A DNA stretch of 26,291 nucleotides, from the NCBI GenBank assembly GCA_045576135.1, contig JAZNFU010000272.1, positions 1 to 26,291 of the forward strand, written 5' to 3'. Shown here one piece after another: positions 2,517 through 26,291 of the stretch. Origin of the DNA: Eubacteriales bacterium (GTDB lineage Bacteria; Bacillota; Clostridia; Oscillospirales; CAG-272). The notes below the pieces were generated by a model, which did no database searches, was not told the DNA's origin, and saw only the letters and a list, made by a program, of their open reading frames with translations. Position 1 is the first letter of the stretch. Every line of letters begins with the position of its first letter. Position numbers and translations under genes: made by a program.

Positions 2517-3275
2517 TTATTGTTGGAGAGCATTTTTCCACCTGCTCGGCGGGATGCCGCAGACCTCTTTAAAAACCTTACTGAAGTAATATACGTCGCA
2601 AAAGCCGCTCCGCAATGCCGCCTCGTTTACCGTGATGCTCCCCGTTTCGAGCAAGCCCTTGGCGTAGGTTATTCTTTTCGTAACTATATATTTGTTTGGA
2701 GTCGTGCCGTAGTGTGCCCTGAAAAGATCGGTGAATCGCCGCGAGGAAAGTCCGCTTTGCTCCGTGGACAAACGAAGGCAATCCGCTTTTTGAAAATTGA
2801 TATCAATATACGTTTTGGCTTGCGAAATTCGCGAGTCGGTCGGAAAATAAGTGCGTCGGCGAATGCCGGATATAACCGAGCAAATTTTATAGACGACCGA
2901 CAAAAGCGAGAGGTCGCCCTCCCCCGAAAGCTTGCTTTTCATTTCAGCCTTTTGCAAAAGTGAGATTAGCTCGTCCGGGTTTTCTATCGGTATACAGAAG
3001 CTATCCGTGTCGATATCAGCAAACGTCGTGAAGTGAACCGAAAACGCCTCGCCCGGCTCAATTACCTCGACGTGATAGTCGTCGCGCATATTGAAAAAAT
3101 ATATACAGCTTTGCGAGAGTGTGAAGCTCTTATATCCGAGCTCGTGAAAAGCCGAGCCGGAAAGCTTTATTCCTATTATATGAAATTTTCTGTTTTTTGC
3201 ATCCCAACGCTTTAAATCCGCATCGAAATGAAGAACCGTGCAAACGTCCTTTATTCTTAAATTCTCAAAATCCAT
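2517..3275 (-). CDS. AraC-family transcriptional regulator
   Basis: C-terminal AraC double HTH (LSSRRFTDLFRAHYGTTPNKYI...AKGLL...ALRSGFCDVYYFSKVFKEVCGIPPSRWK), cupin-like N-terminus, AGGAGG RBS. Confidence 0.92.
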   Translation of the reverse strand: MDFENLRIKDVCTVLHFDADLKRWDAKNRKFHIIGIKLSGSAFHELGYKSFTLSQSCIYFFNMRDDYHVEVIEPGEAFSVHFTTFADIDTDSFCIPIENPDELISLLQKAEMKSKLSGEGDLSLLSVVYKICSVISGIRRRTYFPTDSRISQAKTYIDINFQKADCLRLSTEQSGLSSRRFTDLFRAHYGTTPNKYIVTKRITYAKGLLETGSITVNEAALRSGFCDVYYFSKVFKEVCGIPPSRWKNALQQ

Positions 3276-3315
3276 AGCTTCCTCCTTTGAAAAAAGCGGT
3301 GATTTTTACAATATT

Positions 3316-3344
3316 ATTGTACAACAATAAAAAGCTCTTGTAAA
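3316..3344 (-). promoter_or_regulatory. Putative sigmaA promoter of the AraC gene
   Basis: Minus strand TTTACA-N17-TACAAT. Confidence 0.5.
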
Positions 3345-3440
3345 TATAAATTTCCGTATTTTACAAATTTTCTTTCTTTTACATTGAATTTCGAGTGAAA
3401 GAGAATATACTAAAAGAAAGTGCTTTTTTGGAGGAAGATT

Positions 3441-5684
3441 ATGTTTGATAAATTAAGGGAGGAGCTGTATTCCTTTTATCTTCGGGGGGACGAGGAGCGC
3501 TCGCGGAGCTTTGCCGAGCGATGCTTCGCCATTATGGACTCGCGCTACCGTGAGGGGATGAGCGTAGTCGAGCAAAAGCTGCTACAGTACGACGTAATAA
3601 CCGAGGAGTTTGAGCCGATTTTGTTTCCGCACGCGCCGTATTTTTACGAAACGGGATTTTTGACCTCTCTTTCCGACGGAGCGAGGGAGGCGAAGGGCTT
3701 CGGCTTCGCGCAGGCGAACGGTTGGGTCTTTTATAAAAACGAGCATCTGTTTCGCGACCGGGATCCGAAGCTTTACGAGCGGAAGCTTGCACAGGCGGAG
3801 GAAAACCTATACCTTATATGCGGTGCTTATAACGACACGCATCAGCACTTTAATTTTAATTGCCGTCCGTTTTTGGAAATCGGCGCGTGCGGCGTTTACC
3901 GTAGGGCAAAGGCGGAGCTTGAAAACGCCGAAAACGAAGAAGAAAGAGAGTTTCTTTCAGCTGTCTGCTACGGTATGGAAAGCTTGCGCCGTATGGCAAA
4001 GAAGTTTTCCGAAAAAGCCGAGCAAATGCTCACGCGGGAGCTTGATGCCGAGGAAAGAGAAAATCTTACGCTGATTGCCAAAACCGCAGCCGAGCTTCCT
4101 TGGCGCGCACCGGAAAGCTTTTACGAGGCGCTTGCCACGCTTGCGTTTTTGCGTACGGCGTTCGGCTCGCTTGAGGGTGTCGGACCGAATACCTTCGGCA
4201 GACTTGATTTTGACCTGATTCGCTTTTACAAGAGCGATATAGAGCGCGGGGCAATAACGCCTGCGGACGCATACCGTCTTATCTGTCAGTTTTTGCTTAT
4301 TTGGGATTGCCACTACGACCACGATATGCTGATGACGGGGTATGCCGACCACGAGCTTGAAAACACTTATACGCTCGGTGGCTGTGACGAGCGCGGCGAG
4401 CCTCTTTACAACGAGCTTACCGAGATGTTTTTGCGCGCTACGCGTGAGCAGAAAATAATTTTCCCCAAGATAAAATGCCGCTTTTCGAAAAATTCGCCGA
4501 AGGAATATCTCGACGCCGTCACCTCCCCGATAATAAAGGGGACGAGCACCGTTCTTTTGCAAAACGACGACGCAACGATACCCGCGCTCGTGCGCGCGGG
4601 ACGTCCGCTATGCGAGGCGCGCGACTATTATATAGCGGGCTGTTGGGACCTCGTGGGCATAAACGAAAAGGCTGACAGAGGAAGCTATCTGAACCTGTTG
4701 AAGTCGATGGAGCTTGCCTTGCACGGAAAGACCGACGTGATGGAGAAGGTGGGGATAACCTTTTTGGGATACGATAATTGTCGGGATTTTGAGGATTTTT
4801 ATAACGTTACTTTACAAAATTCGGAAAAATTGCTCCGCGAAAAGCTTGACGTGGCTCGCGCGGGCGGACAAATATTTCACAAGGTTGATAGGTTCCCGAT
4901 ATTCTCATCGACTCTCGGCGACTGTATAGAAAGCCGTGCCGATTTCACGATGGGCGGCGGTAGATACCGTGACGACTATCAGCTCGTATTCGGCTTTCCG
5001 AACATCGTAGACTCACTGCTCGCCGTGAAAACGCTCGTCTTTGATAAGCAGCTTTACACCCTTGACGAGCTTCTTCGCGCGGTGCGCGCGAACTGGGTGG
5101 GATACGAGGATATGCGTATGCGCGCCGTCGGCTGTGCGGGGTGGGGTGACGGAAGTGCCGAATCCTGCGAGCTTGCCAACCGATTTAACAGCGACCTTTA
5201 TAAAATTTGTTCGGGGTGCGTCGGTACCTACGGAGGCCGCGTGCATTTGGGATATCTTACCTATACCGAGATAAGATGGTGGGGAGAGCGAACCTTGGCG
5301 ACACCCGACGGACGCCGAGCGGGAGAGTGTTTTGCCCAGGGGTTAACTCCGTCGCGCCTAAAGCGCATACCCTGCGTCAACGACGTTATAAACAGCCTTG
5401 CGACGCTTGACGGCTCTCTTATGGCTGCCAATTCGGTGGTGAATATAATTTTGCCGTCGGGTATTTCCAAGGAGCGTGCGGAGTGGTTCTTGCGTGCCGC
5501 CGCATCGAGTGCAATACAGTCCTTACAGCTGAACTGTACGACGAGGGAGGAGCTTTTGGACGCCAAGGCTCACCCTGAAAAATATCCCGACCTTATCGTC
5601 AGGGTGACGGGCTTTTCGGCTAAATTTACGAGTCTTTCGCCGGGGTGGCAGGACGAGGTAATTTCGAGGAATTTTTATGAGTGA
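3441..5684 (+). CDS. Glycyl radical enzyme (PFL-like superfamily), substrate unknown
   Basis: C-terminal glycyl radical motif HPEKYPDLIVRVTGFSAKF, Cys loop IAGCWD, ATPDGRRAGE motif. ATG 3441 follows GGAGG RBS (ORF track starts at 3420). Confidence 0.92.
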   Translation: MFDKLREELYSFYLRGDEERSRSFAERCFAIMDSRYREGMSVVEQKLLQYDVITEEFEPILFPHAPYFYETGFLTSLSDGAREAKGFGFAQANGWVFYKNEHLFRDRDPKLYERKLAQAEENLYLICGAYNDTHQHFNFNCRPFLEIGACGVYRRAKAELENAENEEEREFLSAVCYGMESLRRMAKKFSEKAEQMLTRELDAEERENLTLIAKTAAELPWRAPESFYEALATLAFLRTAFGSLEGVGPNTFGRLDFDLIRFYKSDIERGAITPADAYRLICQFLLIWDCHYDHDMLMTGYADHELENTYTLGGCDERGEPLYNELTEMFLRATREQKIIFPKIKCRFSKNSPKEYLDAVTSPIIKGTSTVLLQNDDATIPALVRAGRPLCEARDYYIAGCWDLVGINEKADRGSYLNLLKSMELALHGKTDVMEKVGITFLGYDNCRDFEDFYNVTLQNSEKLLREKLDVARAGGQIFHKVDRFPIFSSTLGDCIESRADFTMGGGRYRDDYQLVFGFPNIVDSLLAVKTLVFDKQLYTLDELLRAVRANWVGYEDMRMRAVGCAGWGDGSAESCELANRFNSDLYKICSGCVGTYGGRVHLGYLTYTEIRWWGERTLATPDGRRAGECFAQGLTPSRLKRIPCVNDVINSLATLDGSLMAANSVVNIILPSGISKERAEWFLRAAASSAIQSLQLNCTTREELLDAKAHPEKYPDLIVRVTGFSAKFTSLSPGWQDEVISRNFYE

Positions 5685-6528
5685 TTTAAAGGCTACCGTA
5701 TTCGATATAGAGCGTAATTCCTTCGTCGACGGACCGGGTATTCGTACGACCGTGTTTTTTAAGGGGTGCAATCTTTCTTGCGCCTGGTGCCACAATCCTG
5801 AAAGTCGGAATAAAGCCCCTGAGCTGATGCTCTATAAAGATAAATGCACGGGGTGCGGTGCCTGTCGCGCGGTGTGTAAAAATGGCGAAGCCGACTGTAC
5901 GCGATGTGCCCTCTGTGCCGCCGTCTGTAAAAGCGGAGCGAGGATTTTGTGCGGCAGAGAATACACGGTGGGTGAGCTTATGCGCGAATGTATAAAGGAT
6001 GAAATTTTCTTTCGTGCGTCGGGGGGCGGCGTGAGCTTTTCGGGTGGTGAATGTATGCTCCAAATCGACTTTCTTGAACAAATGCTCAAGGAGTGCCAAA
6101 GCCGCGATATTCACACCGCGGTGGATACAGCCGGTGCCGTACCCTTTTCATACTTCGAGCGAATTATACCCTACACCGACCTTTTTCTTTACGATATAAA
6201 ATGTATGGACAGAGAAATACATAAGCGGTACACCGGTGTTTCAAACGAGTTGATTTTGGAGAATTTGCGCAAGCTTATCGCGCGTAATGTAAATATAACT
6301 TTGCGAATTCCTATCATTTTGGGCGTGAACGATAGGATGGAGGAGATGTTAGCCGTGAAGAATTTTTTATTCGAGTCCCGCAAAAAAATAAAGGTGGAAT
6401 TGCTTCCGTATCATTCTATGGGCGAGTATAAATATTCTGCGCTCGGCAGGGCGGTGCCCGCCTTTTGCGCTCCCGCCGATGAGAAAATGCGCGAGCTGAG
6501 AGCCGTTTTTGACGCGTGCGGCGGCTGA
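5677..6528 (+). CDS. Glycyl radical enzyme activating enzyme (radical SAM, ferredoxin-like insert)
   Basis: DGPGIRTTVFFKGCNLSCAWCHNPES (CxxxCxxC), two CxxCxxCxxxC motifs, GGVSFSGGEC; overlaps the GRE stop by 8 bp (translational coupling). Confidence 0.95.
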   Translation: MSDLKATVFDIERNSFVDGPGIRTTVFFKGCNLSCAWCHNPESRNKAPELMLYKDKCTGCGACRAVCKNGEADCTRCALCAAVCKSGARILCGREYTVGELMRECIKDEIFFRASGGGVSFSGGECMLQIDFLEQMLKECQSRDIHTAVDTAGAVPFSYFERIIPYTDLFLYDIKCMDREIHKRYTGVSNELILENLRKLIARNVNITLRIPIILGVNDRMEEMLAVKNFLFESRKKIKVELLPYHSMGEYKYSALGRAVPAFCAPADEKMRELRAVFDACGG

Positions 6529-7845: not shown

Positions 7846-7977
7846 TGTTTACGAAAAGTTCATAAAATGTGGTTAGTTTATTAACAAAAAGCGGGTAAAC
7901 TATAAGCAGAAAGGGGTGCGCGGTGCGAATTTTGGCGACTCTTGCCACACCGCCGCACGAACGTGAGGAGGGTTTAT

Positions 7978-10581
7978 ATGAATAACGAGAAGTTTACACA
8001 AAAGAGTATGGAGGTGCTTGGGACCTCGCTCTCCTTGGCAAACGAGAGGGGAAACAACGCGGTGGAGCCGTCGCATATATTTGCCGCGCTCGTGTCGGAT
8101 AAGGAGGGCTTGATTTATCAGCTTTTTGATAGGCTGCTCGGAGTAGGTGCCGCCGAATCGATTCACGCCGACGCTATCGCTCTTGTCGATGCGCTTCCGA
8201 GAATCAGCGGAGCTAAGGGAGAGGTGTATACGTCAGCGGGGGCAAACGCTCTTTTGACGCTTGCCGACGCCGAGCGCGGCAAAATGGGTGACGACTATAT
8301 ATCGGTCGAGCATATCGCGCTCGCCATCTTTGAAGCAAAGGATGAAAAATGCCGCGATATATTGAAGAAAAGAGGCATAACCCGACAGAAATTCCTTGAG
8401 GCGCTTCGGGCGGTACGCGGAAATACGCGCGTGTCGAGTGAAAACCCCGAGGCTACCTACGACAGCCTTAAAAAGTACGGACAGGACCTCGTGGAGCTTG
8501 CCAGGGCGCAGAAGCTTGACCCGGTAATCGGGCGCGACGAGGAAATTCGAAACGTAATAAGAATACTGTCAAGAAAATCCAAAAACAACCCCTGCCTTAT
8601 CGGTGAGCCGGGTGTCGGAAAAACCGCGATTGCCGAGGGGCTTGCACACAGAATAGTAAAGGGCGACGTGCCCGACAACCTGAAGGACAGAAGCGTATTC
8701 TCGCTTGATATGGGAGCTTTGGTTGCCGGTGCGAAATACCGCGGCGAGTTTGAGGAGCGCTTAAAGGCGGTGCTTTCTGAGGTAAAGGCGTCCGAGGGAA
8801 AAATCATTCTCTTTATCGACGAGCTTCACACCATCGTCGGAGCGGGAAAGACCGACGGAGCTATGGATGCGGGAAATCTTCTCAAGCCTATGCTTGCAAG
8901 AGGAGAGCTGCACTGTATCGGAGCGACCACGCTCAACGAATACCGCGCGTATATAGAAAAGGACGCGGCGCTTGAGAGAAGATTTCAGCCGGTGCTCGTG
9001 CCCGAGCCGACGGTCGAGGATACGGTTGCGATACTCCGCGGACTTAAGGAGCGCTACGAGGTGTTCCACGGCGTTAAAATTCACGACGGCGCCTTGATTG
9101 CCGCGGCTAATCTTTCAAACAGATACATCAGCGACAGATTCCTGCCGGACAAGGCGATAGACCTCGTTGACGAGGCGTGCGCGCTGATAAAAACCGAGCT
9201 TAATTCGATGCCCACCGAGATGGACGACATATCACGCAAAATAATGCAATGCGAGATTGAGGAGGCGGCACTCGCCAAGGAAACCGACAAGCTTTCGATA
9301 GGCAGACGCGAGGACGTGCGCCGTGAGCTTGCGGCACTTCGCGAGAGCTTTGCCGAGATGCGCGCAAGGTGGGAAAACGAGAAGGAAACGATAGGAAAGG
9401 CGCAGAAAATAAGAGAAGAAATAGAAAGAGTAAATGCGAAAATCGAAAAGGCTGAGAGCGAATACGACCTGTCCCTTGCCGCCGAGCTTAAATACGGAAG
9501 ACTTCCCGAATTACGCACGCAGCTTGAGGAGGCTGAGCGCGCCGAGGGCGCGGGGGCGAGCCTTTTGCGCGACGCGGTTACAGAGGAGGAGATTGCAAAA
9601 ACCGTGTCCCGATGGACGAAAATCCCGGTGGCGAAGCTTATGGAGGGCGAGCGCGAGAAGCTGCTTTCTCTGGCAGAAACCTTACATTTGCGCGTCGTAG
9701 GTCAAAACGAGGGCGTAGAAAAGGTTAGCAACGCAATTCTTCGCTCGCGGGCGGGAATACGCGACCCGAAGCGTCCGATAGGCTCGTTTATGTTCCTCGG
9801 TCCGACCGGTGTCGGAAAGACCGAGCTTGCAAAGGCTCTTGCCGAGGCGCTGTTTGACGACGAGCACAACATCGTAAGAATAGATATGTCCGAGTATATG
9901 GAAAAGCACAGCACCTCGCGGCTTATCGGAGCGCCTCCCGGATACGTCGGCTACGACGAGGGTGGTCAGCTTACCGAGGCTGTGAGAAGCCGGCCGTAAT
10001 CGGTGGAGCTGCCCGACGAGATAGAAAAGGCGCACCCCGACGTATTCAACCTGCTCCTGCAGGTGCTTGACGACGGAAGGGTAACCGACAGCCACGGCAG
10101 AACGGTTGATTTCAAAAACACCATAATTATAATGACGAGCAATCTCGGCTCTGATATAATACTTGAGGGAATTTCCGACGGCGCCGTAAGCGACGAGGCG
10201 CGCCGCAGCGTAAACGAAATACTTTCGCGCTCCTTCCGTCCGGAATTTCTCAACCGTCTTGACGAGGTGATATTCTTCACGCCGCTTTCACGCGAGCATA
10301 TCGGTAAAATAGTCAAGCTTTCGCTTCGCTCGCTTGAGGGGCGTCTTGCCGAGCGCCGTATCAGCGTGTCGGTCAGCGAGGCTGCCGAGGCGAAAATCGC
10401 CGACGAGGCTTACAGCCCCGCCTTTGGAGCAAGACCGTTGAAAAGATATTTGCAGTCGCATATAGAAACGCTTATCGCAAAGCGCCTGATAGCCGACGAC
10501 CCCGCACCCGACAGCACGGCACGGGTCGATTTGGAGGACGGCGGCTTCACGGTGCGGATAATACCGCCAAAGGAGGACTGA
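7978..10581 (+). pseudogene. clpB: ClpB disaggregase interrupted by an in-frame TAA at 9997-9999 (true pseudogene or sequence error)
   Basis: ORFs 7942..9999 and 10003..10581 are in one frame and together give a full-length ClpB of about 867 codons: [13 protein letters not shown], coiled-coil middle domain, [46 protein letters not shown] 7978 follows GAGGAGG. Confidence 0.9.
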
Positions 10582-20289: not shown

Positions 20290-21543
20290 TTAAAATTCCT
20301 TTACGGCAGGCTTGCCGTCAAGATACGCTATCATATTGTTTACAAGAAGATTCCAGGATTGGAAGCCGGGATTATTGAGTCCCTCGCCGGTGTCGGCGTG
20401 GTAGTATTCGTGCATTTGTCCGCACTCCGCGATATCCCTGCCGAGTGTATAAATAAGCGCTTCGGCAAGCTCCCGCGCCTCTTTTTCGTAACCGTATTTT
20501 ATCAGTGATATGAAGCACATATAGTTTGCGACGCCCCAAACCGGACCGAGCCAGCAGGACGGGTTGCCCGAGGGGATATTTACAAACATTTTTTCAAGCT
20601 TTGATAGCGAGCGAATGCCGTATTTGCCGAGGAAGGTGTCGGGGTTCAACATATTTTCCTCAATGACTCTTTTCGCTCTGTCGGGCGGTGCAATTCCCGT
20701 CCACAGCGCCGTAAAGCCCGACCAGGAGTCGATTCTCATTATCAGCGAGTGCCAATGCCTCGGGCATCCGCTGTGCAGAAATTTGTCGGGGTCCACGGGT
20801 AAGAGATTTATGTCGGCGCTGTAATACGTTCCGCATTTTTCGTCGTAAAGATGCTCGTTTATCGCATCACGCAATTCGCGAGAGCGCAGCTCGTAATTTT
20901 TCGCCTTTTCCTCCGCTCCCGCAAGCCGCCATATATACGCCATAGCCAAAAGCTCACGGTACATAAGCGCGTTCAGATATATCGACGCGGTGCTGCCTTC
21001 GGGTCGGTAAAAAATCGCGGGGTCGTTGTCAACTCCGATAGCGGTGTCGTCGAGGAAGAAATAAAGTCCGGTCGGCTCGTGGCGGCTCGTTTTATCATAC
21101 CATTCGATGAATTTGTCCAGCTTTGGCAGGGCGTGTGAAATTCGGGAAATATCCTCACCCGTGCTTTTCAAAACAAACGCCAAATGCTGTGCAAGGCAGG
21201 GCTTGTGCGCATTTTTCGATTCGGTGATAAATATCGGCTCGCGCTGTCCGTTTATCATAATGGGAATTTTGCCCGAGTCGTCCATATGCTCGAGGAAATT
21301 GAATATACAGCCCCACTCGCACGCCGAAAATTCGGACTCCCTCTCGCCGCCGTTATCGGCAATAATCTGCCTTACGGCAACGTCCGTAAGCCAGCTGTCC
21401 CAGTCCCAAAGGTCGTATTCGTATACCGCCCCGGGAACGATAAACGGATAATTCAGCCGTCCCATAGGCTCGCGGATAAGCTTCGGGTATGACTTTTTTG
21501 AGTATTCTTTTATAATTTTTTTATATGCGGTCAGATCTTTCAT
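20290..21543 (-). CDS. (alpha/alpha)6 glycoside hydrolase, GH63 (MGH1-like) / GH37 trehalase-like
   Basis: LWDWDSW, GVDNDP (candidate acid Asp), WLGPVWGVANY, MHEYYH (candidate base Glu); no signal peptide visible. Confidence 0.75.
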   Translation of the reverse strand: MKDLTAYKKIIKEYSKKSYPKLIREPMGRLNYPFIVPGAVYEYDLWDWDSWLTDVAVRQIIADNGGERESEFSACEWGCIFNFLEHMDDSGKIPIMINGQREPIFITESKNAHKPCLAQHLAFVLKSTGEDISRISHALPKLDKFIEWYDKTSRHEPTGLYFFLDDTAIGVDNDPAIFYRPEGSTASIYLNALMYRELLAMAYIWRLAGAEEKAKNYELRSRELRDAINEHLYDEKCGTYYSADINLLPVDPDKFLHSGCPRHWHSLIMRIDSWSGFTALWTGIAPPDRAKRVIEENMLNPDTFLGKYGIRSLSKLEKMFVNIPSGNPSCWLGPVWGVANYMCFISLIKYGYEKEARELAEALIYTLGRDIAECGQMHEYYHADTGEGLNNPGFQSWNLLVNNMIAYLDGKPAVKEF

Positions 21544-21779: not shown

Positions 21780-22889
21780 ATGAAAATGACGACAATCACT
21801 TATCCTTACGAGGAGCTTTTGAAGCTTAAGGGAAAGGTTTCGGATGCCGCTATTGCAAGGCTTTCGAAAAAAGCGGACGATATTCTCGCTCTGCCGACTC
21901 TGAAGATGACCGACAAAAAGCTTCACGCCCCCTCGGGTAATATACACGATTATATGTCCTGCGGACTTTATTGGTGGCCGAACCCCAACACCCCCGACGG
22001 ACTTCCTTATATAAATAAGGACGGTATAGTCAATCCCGACTCGCACGACGGAATATCGCTCGGTGCTGTTGGCGCAAGAATCAACACGCTCGCCCTTACC
22101 GCCTTTTATATCGACGAGCGCGCGGCGGAGTGCGCTGAGTATGCTGAGCGTCAGCTTTACGACTGGTTTATAAATCCCGAAACCTATATGGCGCCAAACG
22201 CCCGCTACGCACAGGCTATACCCGGTATTTGCGAGGGAAGAAGCACCGGACTTATCGATTTTGCGGTAACCTATCAGCTTATGGACGGTATCGGCATTTT
22301 CCGGGAGCTTGGACTTCTCGGCGCGGAAACGGTAGCGGCGGTAAAGGCTTGGTTCGTTGAGTTTACCAACTGGATGCTCACGCACGAGAACGGTATTGAG
22401 ATGGATAACGGAAATCAGAATATCGGCGCGTGGCACGATTCGCAGATTCTTTCGATGGCTCTTTTCACCGATAGACCTCAGCTTGCGAAAAACATCTGCC
22501 TCACCTCATACCATCGCCGTCTTGAAACGCTTATACGCCCCGACGGCTCGATGCCGACCGAGCTTGCGCGCACGAAGGCTATCGGATATTCCTTCTACGC
22601 CTTCAACGCTATGATGATGATTTCCGCAATGGCGGAGCGTCTCGGCTACAATTATTGGGCGCCCGACGAGAAGCGCGGTGTGAGCATTCTCATATCCGCC
22701 ATAGAGTTTCTTGACCCCTACGTTCGTGACCCCGACAGCTGTCCTTACCCCGATCTTCACCGTGGCACTCACAGACCCGCGCTCAAAAAGGCGCTTCTTG
22801 CCGCAGCCAAAAGATATCCCGACGGCGGATATGCCGAGCGCGCCGAGGCTCTTGGCGTGAATGACGAATATCTTGAGCCTATCCGCTGA
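21780..22889 (+). CDS. Alginate lyase family (PL5-like) protein
   Basis: HDYMSCGLYWWPNP..PDGLPYINKDG.VNPD, WFINPET.MAPN.RYAQ, ELARTKAIGYSFY resemble the alginate-lyase-domain family; GGAGG RBS; no signal peptide. Confidence 0.8.
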   Translation: MKMTTITYPYEELLKLKGKVSDAAIARLSKKADDILALPTLKMTDKKLHAPSGNIHDYMSCGLYWWPNPNTPDGLPYINKDGIVNPDSHDGISLGAVGARINTLALTAFYIDERAAECAEYAERQLYDWFINPETYMAPNARYAQAIPGICEGRSTGLIDFAVTYQLMDGIGIFRELGLLGAETVAAVKAWFVEFTNWMLTHENGIEMDNGNQNIGAWHDSQILSMALFTDRPQLAKNICLTSYHRRLETLIRPDGSMPTELARTKAIGYSFYAFNAMMMISAMAERLGYNYWAPDEKRGVSILISAIEFLDPYVRDPDSCPYPDLHRGTHRPALKKALLAAAKRYPDGGYAERAEALGVNDEYLEPIR

Positions 22890-22965: not shown

Positions 22966-23005
22966 AAAGCGAAGATGCCACCGCATTTTACGGCATCTTC
23001 GCTTT
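22966..23005. terminator. Bidirectional terminator, perfect 14-bp stem
   Basis: AAAGCGAAGATGCC-N12-GGCATCTTCGCTTT between convergent genes. Confidence 0.8.
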
Positions 23006-23150
23006 GAAATTTTGCGGAAAATCCACCCCCTCGTTGAAAGATTAAAATATCGGGAGGATTTAATTCTTTTTCGTTAAAGTGGTGATAAAGTGCTCCGCGC
23101 ATTTTGTAAAACGCATACACGCGGCTAAAGCTTTGAGTATACTTGAAAGC

Positions 23151-23501
23151 TTATTGATTTTTCAGCGTTGAAACCGAAGAAACAAGCATACGGCGGAGCT
23201 CGATGCATTTGCTGTGAAAATCTTTAAATTCCGCTTCCGAAATAGAGTTCGTATCATAGAGCAGCACAAGCCAATACTCGCTCTCGTTGCATTCCTTGAG
23301 TGCGATTTCAAACTTGGAAATAAAGTCCTTTGTTCCTTGAGCGTATTGCGCTTCGTAAACGTTTGCACCAACGGAAGTTCCACTGCGAAGGAGTTGGTTT
23401 GTCAAAGCGGCTTCAACGCCGTTTTGTTTTAAGGTTCGGCAAAGAAAAACAATATCTTTGGCAAAGTCTTTAGATTTGTTTCTCAAAATACTGTCCGACA
23501 T
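23151..23501 (-). CDS. Four helix bundle protein (23S rRNA IVP / Avd-like family)
   Basis: 116 aa, KSKDFAKDIVFLC...LTNQLLRSGTSVGANVYEAQYAQGTKDFISKFEIALKECNESEYWLVLL, the family pattern (QxxRSxxSxxANxxE...DFxxKxxIAxKExxETxYWL); GAGG RBS. Confidence 0.9.
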   Translation of the reverse strand: MSDSILRNKSKDFAKDIVFLCRTLKQNGVEAALTNQLLRSGTSVGANVYEAQYAQGTKDFISKFEIALKECNESEYWLVLLYDTNSISEAEFKDFHSKCIELRRMLVSSVSTLKNQ

Positions 23502-23514
23502 AATAAACCTCGAA

Positions 23515-23712
23515 GTTTTAAGTTTAGAGTTATGAGTTTGGCGATGCCAAACGTTATGAATTCACTGCGTGAAAGTTATGAGAGTGCTTTGCACTCGTTA
23601 TGATATGATTGCCTGTCTAACTTCAAACGCGGCGAAGCCGCTCATAACTGCGAGCTTTGCGAGCATCATAACTACGCGCAGCGTATCATAACTTGCCGTC
23701 AGGCAATCATAG
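23515..23712. repeat. Inverted array of GTTATGA/TCATAAC heptamers separated by short variable hairpins
   Basis: GTTATGA at 23529, 23553, 23575, 23597; TCATAAC at 23642, 23666, 23686 and TCATAG at 23707; preceded by GTTTTAA-GTTTAGA (23515-23528). The intervening segments are hairpins (see findings). Confidence 0.92.
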
Positions 23713-23721
23713 TTGATTGAA

Positions 23722-23748
23722 TGGGAATAAGCCGCAGGCTTATTCCCA
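23722..23748. repeat. Perfect 12-bp hairpin with GCA loop flanking the array
   Basis: TGGGAATAAGCC-GCA-GGCTTATTCCCA. Confidence 0.85.
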
Positions 23749-23854
23749 CTCGCTTAAATCAGCATTATTCTGAGTGAAATTAGGTATTTTAACGTGCTTT
23801 TTTCAGATAATTCGACCTTCTTTTTCCCCATAATCTATGGAGTCTTTGAAAAAA

Positions 23855-23882
23855 CGGTATCAAAATGGTATCAACGATACCG
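23855..23882 (-). terminator. Probable terminator of the membrane-protein gene, containing GGTATC repeats
   Basis: CGGTATC / GATACCG stem followed on the minus strand by TTTTTT; GGTATCAA repeated at 23856 and 23867. Confidence 0.55.
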
Positions 23883-23955
23883 CCTAAAAACATATTTTTT
23901 CTGTTGTAACTATTGTACCATAACAGTAGAATAAATACAAGAGGTTTGCTGAAAA

Positions 23956-25305
23956 TTAGCGCAATCCTTTCTTTGCCTTTTTGCTTACGAGCGTTACGAG
24001 TAAAGCAAAATAAGAAAGCACGATTATTTCCACGATGAAATGATAGATGTTGACTTGCAAGATATCTACTTGTGTGCGTAAAAAGAGTTCAACACCGCAG
24101 AGAACAGTGAAGGCACCTACCGCAAAACGATGAGCTTTGTGGATGAGATTATCTTTCACAAGAGCAAAGATGATGAGCACAAATCCTACAATGTTCGCAA
24201 GGCTTGAAACATCCTCAATGGAAACATTTATCGTAGAGAAAAGCTGATTGATGACATACGCATCTTGACTCATTATCTCAGGCATAAATACGAATATTAG
24301 ACTACCAGAGATCTGACCTATAAATATTGACAGAGTTTCGCTTAAGAGAATTGTTACACAAGCAGCCGAGAGAAGCTTATTTTTACGTACTCTTTGATAT
24401 TCATATCCGAAATATGTGAGGAAAATCAGAAGCGCAAATTTGATATAAGTATCAAGTGTAGACATTATCGAAACAAGCTGTACGGCAGTTGCCTGCGATA
24501 TTGCCGTGGAGTCAACAAAAATTACACCGGCGGTGTAAACAGCATATATGAAGATTGTAATTACTAAAGAGATAATAGTAGATTTTGATATTGAGTTTTC
24601 GCTATTGTAACTACATTTTTCAAGGAATGAATAAAGGAGATACAGAAGTGCAACCTCTATGAAAGCTCCAACATAATATGCCAACGTATCCAAGAGGATC
24701 TTAAGAACATGTGCGGAATCCGGCGTTTTTATTGCAATGACTCCTATAAAAGATATTGCAGATATGCCGAGGAAAGCCAATGCGTAAAGAGAAAGTTTGC
24801 CTATATTCTTAAAAACGCCTTTATAATAATGGTCGTTATCCATAATGGAATAATTGAAATAAATATCATTCTTTCTAAAACTGTAAACTACGTATATTCC
24901 TATAACGAAAAGCAATGTATAAATAATGCCACTTGGCCCATTGTCTGCAAAATTAAGAGGTTTACCAAGATACAGAACAATAGGCAAATCAAAAGCGAAA
25001 GCCCCCAAAGCTATTTTAATTAGTATTGAAGCAGCTCTGCTATAAAACCTATCTTCTTCCAATTCCGTTCGTTCGTCTTTGTAATATATAAAATGGCGAA
25101 CAAATCCAATTATTAAAGTGATAATCGTACTAATATAAATAGCCACATCGGGAAGCGCAAACCAATAATAGCGGACATTAGATGCATTTCTCAATAAATT
25201 TGCGCAGTGAATTTGTGCAAGTACAAATGTGACAATAAAAGTTATCAGAATAGCTCTTTTTGCTATTTTCCCTTTCACATTTTCAATTCTTTCATCGTAA
25301 AACAT
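23956..25305 (-). CDS. Polytopic membrane protein of unknown function
   Basis: About 449 aa with roughly a dozen hydrophobic segments and a DER motif repeated in the N-terminal part (YDERIE, KDERTE). ATG 25305 follows GGAGGG, 1 nt after the HTH stop (ORF track starts at 25329). Confidence 0.8.
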   Translation of the reverse strand: MFYDERIENVKGKIAKRAILITFIVTFVLAQIHCANLLRNASNVRYYWFALPDVAIYISTIITLIIGFVRHFIYYKDERTELEEDRFYSRAASILIKIALGAFAFDLPIVLYLGKPLNFADNGPSGIIYTLLFVIGIYVVYSFRKNDIYFNYSIMDNDHYYKGVFKNIGKLSLYALAFLGISAISFIGVIAIKTPDSAHVLKILLDTLAYYVGAFIEVALLYLLYSFLEKCSYNSENSISKSTIISLVITIFIYAVYTAGVIFVDSTAISQATAVQLVSIMSTLDTYIKFALLIFLTYFGYEYQRVRKNKLLSAACVTILLSETLSIFIGQISGSLIFVFMPEIMSQDAYVINQLFSTINVSIEDVSSLANIVGFVLIIFALVKDNLIHKAHRFAVGAFTVLCGVELFLRTQVDILQVNIYHFIVEIIVLSYFALLVTLVSKKAKKGLR

Positions 25306-25306
25306 T

Positions 25307-25498
25307 TTATTCCCTCCAAAATAAATCATTGAGCGTAACGCCCAACTCTTTGCATATACGAATACATAATTCTATCGTGGGATTATATACCCCGTTTTCG
25401 ATCATATTGATCGTCTGTCGTGAAACTCCAATGTTTTTTGCAAGATCTGTTTGAGATAAATTTTTCTCAATTCGTGCTTGCTTCATCTTTTCGTTCAT
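25307..25498 (-). CDS. Small XRE-family HTH transcriptional regulator
   Basis: MKQARIEKNLSQTDLAKNIGVSRQTINMIENGVYNPTIELCIRICKELGVTLNDLF; AGGAGG RBS before ATG 25498. Confidence 0.93.
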   Translation of the reverse strand: MNEKMKQARIEKNLSQTDLAKNIGVSRQTINMIENGVYNPTIELCIRICKELGVTLNDLFWRE

Positions 25499-25508
25499 CA
25501 AATCCTCC

Positions 25509-25573
25509 TGTCAAATATATTAGACAATCGGTATTATATCACAAAAAAATGATATTGTCAATTATATTTGACA
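25509..25573. promoter_or_regulatory. Two 18-bp palindromic operators (25509-25526, 25556-25573)
   Basis: TGTCAAATATATTAGACA and TGTCAATTATATTTGACA; one covers the -35, the other lies between the start site and the RBS. Confidence 0.75.
25533..25561 (-). promoter_or_regulatory. Consensus sigmaA promoter of the XRE-membrane protein operon
   Basis: Minus strand TTGACA-N17-TATAAT with TGn extension. Confidence 0.85.
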
Positions 25574-25687
25574 AAAAACAATAAAAACTCACCCACAATA
25601 TTCCTATACTAAATCAATGTTTATACAATTCACATTTGCATATAATAATAGTAGCATTTAAATTGCCAAAAAAGTTTTTGAAATCTA

Positions 25688-25716
25688 TTGACTTCTCACA
25701 ACTTTTTTGATATAAT
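25688..25716 (+). promoter_or_regulatory. Strong sigmaA promoter
   Basis: TTGACT-N17-TATAAT with TGn extended -10 and AT-rich upstream region. Confidence 0.85.
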
Positions 25717-25721
25717 TAAGA

Positions 25722-25890
25722 TGCTAGATGACAGCGTGACTGTTCGTCGTTGCGTTGAAGCATATTTCCGGTTCGGTTTTCGGTTATATGTGGAGCATCG
25801 TATCGGGCGGGTACTGCCGCAGACCGAATAGGTATCTACCGAAATAAAGTACCGACCAAGCCACACGAAAGTGTGGCTTTCTCATTTGTT
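25722..25890 (+). ncRNA. Candidate structured RNA (leader or antitoxin) between promoter and terminator
   Basis: About 165 nt, GC-richer than its flanks, bounded by a promoter and a terminator, with several complementary segments (see findings). No known family recognised. Confidence 0.55.
25858..25890 (+). terminator. Intrinsic terminator-like hairpin upstream of the PBECR4-like gene
   Basis: AAGCCACAC-GAAA-GTGTGGCTT followed by TCTCATTTGTT; ends just before the AGGAG RBS. Confidence 0.75.
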
Positions 25891-25902
25891 AGGAGTGTCG
25901 AA

Positions 25903-26291
25903 ATGTGTCTATTTTTACAAGCTACAACCGCATGGACGGATTTAATGACAACAGAATATATCTTTATCCTTGGTTATAAGAACAAAGAATACAATCTCCA
26001 TTTGATTTTTGAAAAGGCTAATTTTTATCATTTATCTGGTATGCACTATGCCAAAGATGTTGATTTTAAAATTACCCCCAACAAAATGTATGGTGAAAAA
26101 CTAATTGATTTGATAGCTTCAAATAAAATTAATGCATGTGACATTGAAAAATCGAAAAATTGGGAGAAAATAAAGGGGCGGCTGGAAGGCATCATTACTT
26201 TGAAAAAAATTTTAGAGTCGAATTTTTTAATTTATCGATTCGCCCCAAACAAACTTGGATTCAACTCTGAAATTTCAGCAAAGTACTTAAT
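25903..26291 (+). CDS. PBECR4-like putative endoribonuclease (3'-truncated by window edge; absent from ORF track)
   Basis: AGGAG RBS, then an uninterrupted frame MCLFLQATTAWTDLMTTEYIFILGYKNKEYNLHLIFEKANFYHLSGMHYAKDV...NWEKIKGRLEGIITLKKILESNFLIYRF...FNSEISAKYL. The Y-x-I-x-LG-x-K...F-x-K-x-x-F-x-HL-x-G-x-H pattern is what I recall for PBECR4 (BECR-fold) proteins; not confirmed by search. Confidence 0.68.
   Translation, partial: MCLFLQATTAWTDLMTTEYIFILGYKNKEYNLHLIFEKANFYHLSGMHYAKDVDFKITPNKMYGEKLIDLIASNKINACDIEKSKNWEKIKGRLEGIITLKKILESNFLIYRFAPNKLGFNSEISAKYL

Follow-up and report, generated by a model that had tools for sequence, protein, structure and literature searches.

Glycyl radical enzymes (GREs) that act as 1,2-eliminases or isomerases carry a CXE motif, in which the second residue past the catalytic Cys is a Glu that forms a hydrogen bond with the substrate, and this Glu is kept in every characterised GRE eliminase and isomerase (PMC13450708). 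In Escherichia coli YbiW, the catalytic pair is named as C441 and E443; YbiW and PflD are both isomerases which open the ring of 1,5-anhydrohexitol-6-phosphate, so that their substrates are sugar-derived, and in glycerol dehydratase (GD) His164 is proposed to protonate the leaving group (PMC13450708). The same 2026 Biochemistry review calls whole GRE clades uncharacterised and names no enzyme of the kind described below (PMC13450708). Here we analysed a GRE gene (3441-5684, + strand, 747 aa) within a stretch of 26,291 nucleotides, hereafter the window, which comprises positions 1 to 26,291 (forward strand) of contig JAZNFU010000272.1 from GCA_045576135.1, a metagenome-assembled genome (MAG) of an Eubacteriales bacterium. 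A preliminary description of this DNA had noted a Cys loop reading YYIAGCWDLV, a protein of about 747 aa, a coupled activase and a divergent AraC gene, and all of these are present in the sequence. Our best explanation, which we put forward tentatively and rate at slightly under an even chance, is that the locus is an AraC-controlled two-gene unit for a functional GRE and its dedicated activase, belonging to an uncharacterised clade, with eliminase- or isomerase-like chemistry in which the acid/base group would have been relocated away from the Cys loop.

Radical machinery and relation to characterised enzymes

Pfam assigned to the 747-aa protein a PFL-like domain (PF02901, E = 4e-81) and a Gly_radical domain (PF01228, E = 3e-12), values at which a chance match is not an issue; the N-terminal ~130 residues lie outside the Pfam model. 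The AlphaFold2 (AF2) model, built from 83 input sequences, had a mean pLDDT (predicted local distance difference test) of 95.4 and a pTM (predicted template modelling score) of 0.94, and Foldseek aligned it with CutC, propanediol dehydratase (PD), HypD and GD at TM scores of 0.83-0.87 and 20-23% identity, which shows that the predicted structure adopts the usual barrel fold of GREs. Alignment by phmmer and hmmsearch paired Cys401 with the catalytic Cys of HpyG (8ID1), HypD and GD, with GCWD lying over GCVE; its equivalents are residue 454 of the HypD chain (native C434), GD C433 and YbiW C441. Alignment with the E. coli proteins by MAFFT placed C401 and D403 on YbiW C441 and E443, and Gly724 on YbiW G786 and PflB G735 (Met1 counted). 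Thus the Cys in the unusual loop is the aligned catalytic Cys, as the preliminary description had assumed.

The radical storage site Gly724 (codon 5610-5612) lies in the Gly loop RVTGF (5601-5615, + strand) and was invariant in 175 orthologues and in 83 diverse GREs, so that the Ala, Ser or Thr which marks aminoacyl radical enzymes is not found at this position. It may be noted that a relative of ~793 aa, P0264, reads RVATY in place of RVxGY, and Thr at the radical-Gly site is the signature of these recently described enzymes. The activase gene (5677-6528, + strand, 283 aa) overlaps the GRE stop by 8 nt and is translationally coupled to it. Its product carries the CX3CX2C motif (C31/C35/C38, at 5767-5790) along with eight additional Cys that serve two auxiliary clusters, has a 2x[4Fe-4S] ferredoxin-like insert at 5845-5928, and scored 318 bits on TIGR02494 (cut-off 174), while all equivalog models remained below their cut-offs. 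Both domains, the Gly of an RVxG[YF] loop, the Cys-loop Cys and a cognate radical S-adenosylmethionine activase, i.e. the defining features of the GRE superfamily, are present together. As judged from these alignments and motifs, the complete radical relay, from the activase through storage Gly724 to thiyl Cys401, is shown to be intact.

The closest characterised proteins in sequence and fold are the GRE 1,2-eliminases HypD (6VXC), HpyG (8ID1), CutC (5FAU), GD (1R8W) and PD (5I2G), which were the top matches at 190-286 bits and the TM scores given above. Features common to them and the window GRE are a barrel of 10 strands, the Gly loop, a Cys loop in which a Gly precedes the single Cys, and a His at the GD His164 position; the activases of these enzymes, too, belong to the type with two auxiliary clusters. 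However, the window GRE is only 20-23% identical to them and ~40-100 residues shorter, lacks the CXE Glu, has Trp instead of Val or Ile at Cys+1 and changed substrate contacts (GD Y339/HypD F340 to Glu307 and GD Y640 to Leu606), and has no microcompartment or aldehyde dehydrogenase context. YbiW and PflD resemble it in size (PflD has 765 aa), in the order of GRE gene followed by activase gene, and in the exact alignment of the catalytic Cys and Gly; but both keep the CXE Glu (PflD E421, YbiW E443), belong with the GCVE half of the superfamily tree described below, and reside in operons with phosphotransferase system, aldolase and phosphatase genes, nothing comparable to which flanks the window GRE. 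With PflB the likeness extends to the superfamily fold and the radical relay, Cys401 corresponding to the radical-receiving Cys and Gly724 to G735 (Met1 counted). The Cys-Cys pair of PflB is absent from the window GRE, and PflB R177 and R436 (Met1 counted), which bind pyruvate, correspond to His136 and Tyr416.

The NCBIfam PFL2/GD subfamily model TIGR01774 gave 259 bits against a cut-off of 678, the HpsG, HypD, CutC, HpfG and PflD equivalogs 186-223 bits against cut-offs of 1000-1109, among which HpsG, HypD and CutC gave 209-223 against 1000-1100, and the pyruvate formate-lyase (PFL) model TIGR01255 54 bits against 994. BSS and MASS were among the most distant Protein Data Bank matches (84-107 bits). 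The window protein is thus shown, at the level of sequence, not to be an orthologue of any characterised GRE; scores far below cut-off, 20-23% identity to solved structures and the placement of PflD and YbiW in the other half of the tree bear out the earlier expectation that it would not cluster with an enzyme of known activity.

The Cys loop, the HExE loop and the pocket

The Cys loop YYIAGCWDLV (4626-4655, + strand; Cys401 codon 4641-4643) has neither the adjacent Cys pair of PFL and TdcE nor, with Asp at position 403, the CXE Glu of eliminases and isomerases; the decarboxylase type of Cys-loop Glu (HPAD E505) is likewise missing, as there is no Glu at Cys+2. Among 175 distinct orthologues, 52-74% identical to the window protein, Gly400, Cys401 and Trp402 were invariant, and the Trp at Cys+1 was also invariant across a clade of 23 representative clusters. 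Residue 403, on the other hand, was variable: Gly in 118 of the 175, Asp in 49, Cys in 3, and Ser and Ala in 2 each. About 200 positions, with Gly724, Cys401 and all of the pocket set among them, were invariant among 18 orthologues at 65-74% identity, and a residue which is freely Gly in such a background is not an essential base. The alignments thus show that the Cys+2 residue is not a catalytic one. Of the GCWD motif on which the preliminary description rested, the Trp has therefore stood and the Asp has not, since it is Gly in about two thirds of the orthologues and also Cys, Ser or Ala. The different pocket and uncharacterised reaction that it drew from Trp and Asp fared similarly: the loop is non-canonical and the chemistry is probably uncharacterised, but the weight placed on the Asp was misplaced.

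Across the wider clade the Cys loop passes from GCQE to GCWE and then to GCW[D/G/S], an order which implies that the Glu is ancestral and was lost toward the window group. What the group does have is a second loop, GYADHELEN (residues 300-308, 4338-4364, + strand), which precedes barrel strand beta3. Its H304, E305 and E307 were invariant, and the whole loop was unchanged in alignment A1 and in 120 unselected best homologues. As read from the alignments, the family signature is GCW[G/D] together with the invariant GYADHELEN loop and not GCWD, and what is informative is the invariant Trp, the HExE loop and the fact that the residue at Cys+2 is dispensable. GCWD is the commonest loop of the wider HExE clade, being found in 8 of its 11 representative clusters.

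Pocket positions were mapped from profile alignments to solved enzymes, the HypD paper and the E. coli MAFFT alignment. His136 (3846-3848, + strand), aligned with GD H164, HypD H160 and YbiW H165, was invariant in the 175 orthologues. Tyr301 (GD F333, HypD S334), Tyr416 (HypD Y450) and Tyr608 (HypD T645) were also invariant, and Leu606 (GD Y640) nearly so. Invariant Glu307 aligns with GD Y339, HypD F340, YbiW Y344 and PflB W334, and would thus occupy the site of the substrate-contacting aromatic residue of GD, HypD, YbiW and PFL. Taken together the predicted pocket is rich in polar and carboxylate residues (E245, D303, E305, E307, E409, D412, E610, N250, Y301, Y416 and Y608); speculatively, a polyol or a cationic substrate bearing an amine would fit it.

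We also compared the two loops among related clusters. Glu at both 305 and 307, as [H/Y]-E-x-E, was found in 11 of 11 clusters having Trp at Cys+1 and D, G or S at Cys+2, as against 1 of 12 GCWE clusters. In an IQ-TREE phylogeny which comprised 29 representatives and had GCQE clusters as its root, a 17-cluster clade (support 100) was defined by the HExE/GCWD state, with GCWE lineages devoid of HExE nested inside it. Three independent changes at Cys+2 were counted, two of them paired with an opposite change at ExE and one (P0148) keeping both, so that the covariation of Cys+2 and ExE is suggestive but not significant. The sister GCWE and GCQE short-GRE lineages, themselves uncharacterised, are 30-42% identical to the window protein along their entire length, the distinctive N-terminus included, are ~750 aa long and occur in the same gut Clostridia, often in the same genome or in tandem, with an own AraC for each copy; they keep the Cys-loop Glu and lack the H-E-x-E loop, whereas the window GRE shows the reverse.

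Clade, regulator, neighbourhood and the likely chemistry

An exhaustive search of 1.84 billion representative proteins returned 4895 relatives, and hundreds of orthologues at 65-74% identity came from a word-indexed search, every one with a hypothetical or generic name; the names in the ESM Atlas were likewise only generic, and full-text literature searching found no paper on the short-GRE clade. In a superfamily tree of 114 full-length representatives, a set without HypD, CutC and GD, the half holding the window protein was strongly supported and comprised 60 clusters, nearly all 720-765 aa long and matching from the query N-terminus, while the opposite half comprised 54 clusters, in which a length of ~800 aa and loops of the GCVE type prevail. 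When E. coli PflD and YbiW were added afterwards, they joined the opposite half (57 rows, support 100), and in phmmer searches HypD, CutC and GD scored 182-191 bits to the query, lower than the full-length short-clade members of the tree (at least 246 bits). When one genome per GTDB species was scanned, 112 species had a relative. All of the 80 loci that were fetched came from MAGs of uncultured Oscillospiraceae, Acutalibacteraceae, Eubacteriales or Clostridia, some of them sampled from the gut of deer, sheep, goats, buffalo and cattle or from that of Hadza people. By these alignments and trees, the window protein is placed in a large clade of GREs that are short (~750 aa) and whose hosts are uncultured Oscillospiraceae and other Clostridia of gut and rumen.

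Members of the clade are multiplied within genomes. Five related genomes of 1.6-2.9 Mb (G001-G005) had 5-14 GRE-like matches each, mostly to forms of ~700-770 aa, which is a marked expansion of the superfamily. Several loci (L011, L054, L064/L067, L069, L072, L047, L049 and L063) had two or three short GRE paralogues in tandem or back to back, every copy with a divergent AraC of its own and some copies adjoining genes for short-chain dehydrogenase/reductase (SDR) and beta-lactamase-fold proteins. The MAG of the window itself has at least four other GRE genes at ~29% identity (C343:1351-3159, C175:1527-3323, C208:3-1058 and C252:11320-12819; L085-L088), two of which have a readable CXE loop (GCYE and TCAE) and one of which is of PFL type (RVSGYAV).

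The regulator gene (2517-3275, - strand) is divergent from the GRE gene, 165 bp upstream of it, and encodes an AraC/XylS-family protein of 252 aa with the Pfam domains HTH_18 (E = 2.8e-17) and HTH_AraC. Its N-terminal 140 residues gave nothing in Pfam even at E = 10. In the AF2 model (pLDDT 93.5) nine strands form a barrel, after which come helices, and Foldseek matched the model with ToxT and Rns over the full length and with the regulatory domains of AraC, BgaR and RhaR. In the model the N-terminal sensor domain is cupin-like, and together with the C-terminal double helix-turn-helix this predicted beta-barrel has the make-up of a cupin-sensor AraC/XylS regulator, in agreement with the cupin-type AraC noted earlier. 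Fatty acids are the ligands of ToxT and Rns, the best matches in structure, and the matched sensors cover sugars too, so that the class of ligand does not follow from the fold. A sugar-derived inducer, at which the preliminary description had hinted, is unproven; its sole and indirect support comes from glycoside-hydrolase-rich neighbourhoods in related loci. The regulators of related loci co-diverge with their GREs (38-59% identity) and conserve the N-terminal domain.

Gene neighbourhoods were compared over the 80 GTDB loci and the window (95 GRE copies), using our own open reading frame (ORF) calling and blastp clustering. A divergent AraC lay directly upstream of 71 of the 95 copies, and an activase directly downstream of 43. 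The activase was within the locus for only 55 of the 95, which suggests that it is often shared or encoded elsewhere. Genes for SDR, ABC sugar permeases, GH2, GH20, EamA and a beta-lactamase-fold protein each occurred in at most 11 loci, several of them belonging to neighbouring paralogues. The related loci also showed repeated pairs of AraC and glycoside-hydrolase genes, and the window itself holds a GH63/MGH1-like gene and one of the alginate-lyase family, which makes a glycan-derived substrate plausible but unproven. In the window no transporter, microcompartment or dehydrogenase gene adjoins the GRE-activase pair, as had been reported, and over the related loci AraC and activase alone recur.

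In the account that we favour, the likeliest chemistry would be an eliminase- or isomerase-like cleavage of a C-X bond in a small polar molecule derived from a sugar or an amine. His136 would assist as acid/base, and so would the invariant His304-Glu305-x-Glu307 loop, which would place a carboxylate where other GREs have an aromatic substrate contact and thereby substitute for the Cys-loop Glu, and the cupin-type AraC would sense the substrate or a related compound and turn the operon on. The relocated carboxylate is the best-supported inference from the alignments and not a result. There is also a rather low but real probability that the acid/base group moved to the HExE loop and that the reaction type or substrate class is in addition one undescribed among GREs. 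The substrate might then be, for example, an amino sugar, an amino alcohol or another cationic or polyhydroxylated gut metabolite, and the enzyme would be one of a 5-14-fold GRE expansion with an own AraC sensor per enzyme, i.e. part of a battery of anaerobic radical catabolic enzymes in uncultured Oscillospiraceae.

Several observations weigh against this favoured account. The pocket positions were assigned by sequence alignment and not from model coordinates, and the loop at 300-310 is the least confident part of the AF2 model (pLDDT 79-86). Around residues 300-308 two hidden Markov model alignments differ by three residues; we settled the register by gapless anchoring on the invariant GG that follows, which gives E307 = HypD F340. 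Residues R176, F327, W333 and R435 of PflB (mature numbering), which are classic PFL active-site residues, land on positions 136, 301, 307 and 416, and this supports the register. The anchoring is also consistent with the MAFFT result and with the equivalence of HypD S334 and GD F333 stated in the HypD paper. His136 is near-universal in this half of the superfamily and does not discriminate between reaction classes, and the coupling of Cys+2 with ExE comprises three contrasts only, for which a sign test gives p = 0.5 and cannot reach significance. No dehydrogenase, aldolase, transporter or microcompartment gene is conserved beside the GRE in the 80 loci and the window, so that there is no conserved pathway partner and the context does not constrain the reaction class.

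There is some room, at a probability that we consider rather low but real, for a different GRE reaction class which needs no Cys-loop base (decarboxylation, a C-C lyase or hydroalkylase reaction, or an undescribed one), the HExE loop and the polar invariant residues then serving only to bind substrate. Such a class would agree with the loss of the Glu found in all characterised eliminases and isomerases, with the fact that PFL and the X-succinate synthases function without it, with the lack of conserved aldehyde- or ketone-processing genes nearby, and with a pocket that differs from those of GD, HypD, YbiW and PFL at nearly every mapped site. But lineages which keep the Glu, as GCQE or GCWE, surround the clade in the tree; the decarboxylase models (HPAD, IAD, PAD and AAD) were the worst-scoring, at 113-133 bits against cut-offs of 1100-1150, BSS and HPAD were the most distant structures, and no small accessory-subunit gene of the kind accompanying BSS, MASS and HPAD is adjacent to the GRE. 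The chemical similarity of Asp to Glu, the Asp in the window protein itself and the prevalence of GCWD among the HExE clusters would suit an ordinary 1,2-eliminase in which Asp403 does the job of the CXE Glu; yet an essential base would not become Gly in 118 of 175 orthologues, or Cys, Ser or Ala in others, over a set in which hundreds of other positions stay invariant, and we regard this as improbable. That the protein is a decayed or non-catalytic homologue, either a pseudo-enzyme or a spare radical carrier without a catalytic base, is hardly credible: the canonical Glu is gone, and the MAG is fragmentary with an apparently broken clpB in the same window, but the 747-codon frame is open, the ~200 positions noted above are invariant over 18 orthologues, and a coupled activase and dedicated regulator are maintained in most of the 112 species.

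Gene layout of the window and significance

The window has a GC content of ~50%, and its source MAG is 1.8 Mb in size, 63% complete and in 410 contigs. The 165-bp divergent intergenic region (3276-3440) is AT-rich and, as read from its sequence, holds the presumed promoters, the presumed AraC operator and the ribosome-binding site of the GRE gene; sigma-70-like hexamers occur on both of its strands, as consensus matches only. The GRE gene starts at ATG 3441, 5 nt past a GGAGGA ribosome-binding site at 3430-3435, and its homologues are almost all 746-749 aa long, in line with 747 aa from this start. A longer ORF from GTG 3420 was rejected: that codon precedes the ribosome-binding site and so lacks one of its own there, and the homologues begin at the ATG.

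The flanks consist of housekeeping genes, namely those for RNase J, a weak 4'-phosphopantetheinyl transferase-like protein, a 191-aa ORF without a family match, clpB, hrcA-grpE-dnaK-dnaJ and truB. The transferase-like gene is a 224-aa ORF (1767-2441, + strand) in the interval between RNase J and AraC, with sub-threshold 4'-phosphopantetheinyl transferase matches only (E about 1e-4). The clpB gene (7942-10581, + strand) is interrupted by an in-frame TAA at 9997-9999 and reads ...AVRSRP*SVELPDEIEK. Its two halves, 7942-9999 and 10003-10581, share a frame and jointly span Clp_N, AAA, AAA_lid_9, AAA_2 and ClpB_D2-small; the TAA falls in a conserved motif, where ClpB normally has Tyr, and is either a genuine nonsense mutation or an assembly or sequencing error of the MAG. 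A GH63/MGH1-like hydrolase gene (20290-21543, - strand) and a gene of the alginate-lyase family (21780-22889, + strand) are also located in the window. Its last part, 23000-26291, has a GC content of 34-40% as against ~50%, may be foreign DNA, and contains a 457-aa ORF (23956-25329, - strand) which had no match in Pfam.

Among the most consequential anaerobic reactions of gut microbiomes are several carried out by GREs, including those which lead to trimethylamine, H2S precursors, p-cresol and skatole and those which allow the use of hydroxyproline. The clade described here is found widely among Clostridia of the rumen, caecum and human gut, is multiplied within their genomes, and breaks the one rule kept by all characterised eliminases and isomerases, the CXE Glu. 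If the relocated base is true, motif-based predictions of GRE function which rely on CXE would need revision. The compact unit of sensor, enzyme and activase would provide a handle for de-orphaning these enzymes through inducer and substrate screening, and the comparison of His304, Glu305 and Glu307 with residue 403 supplies a mutational hypothesis for that purpose.

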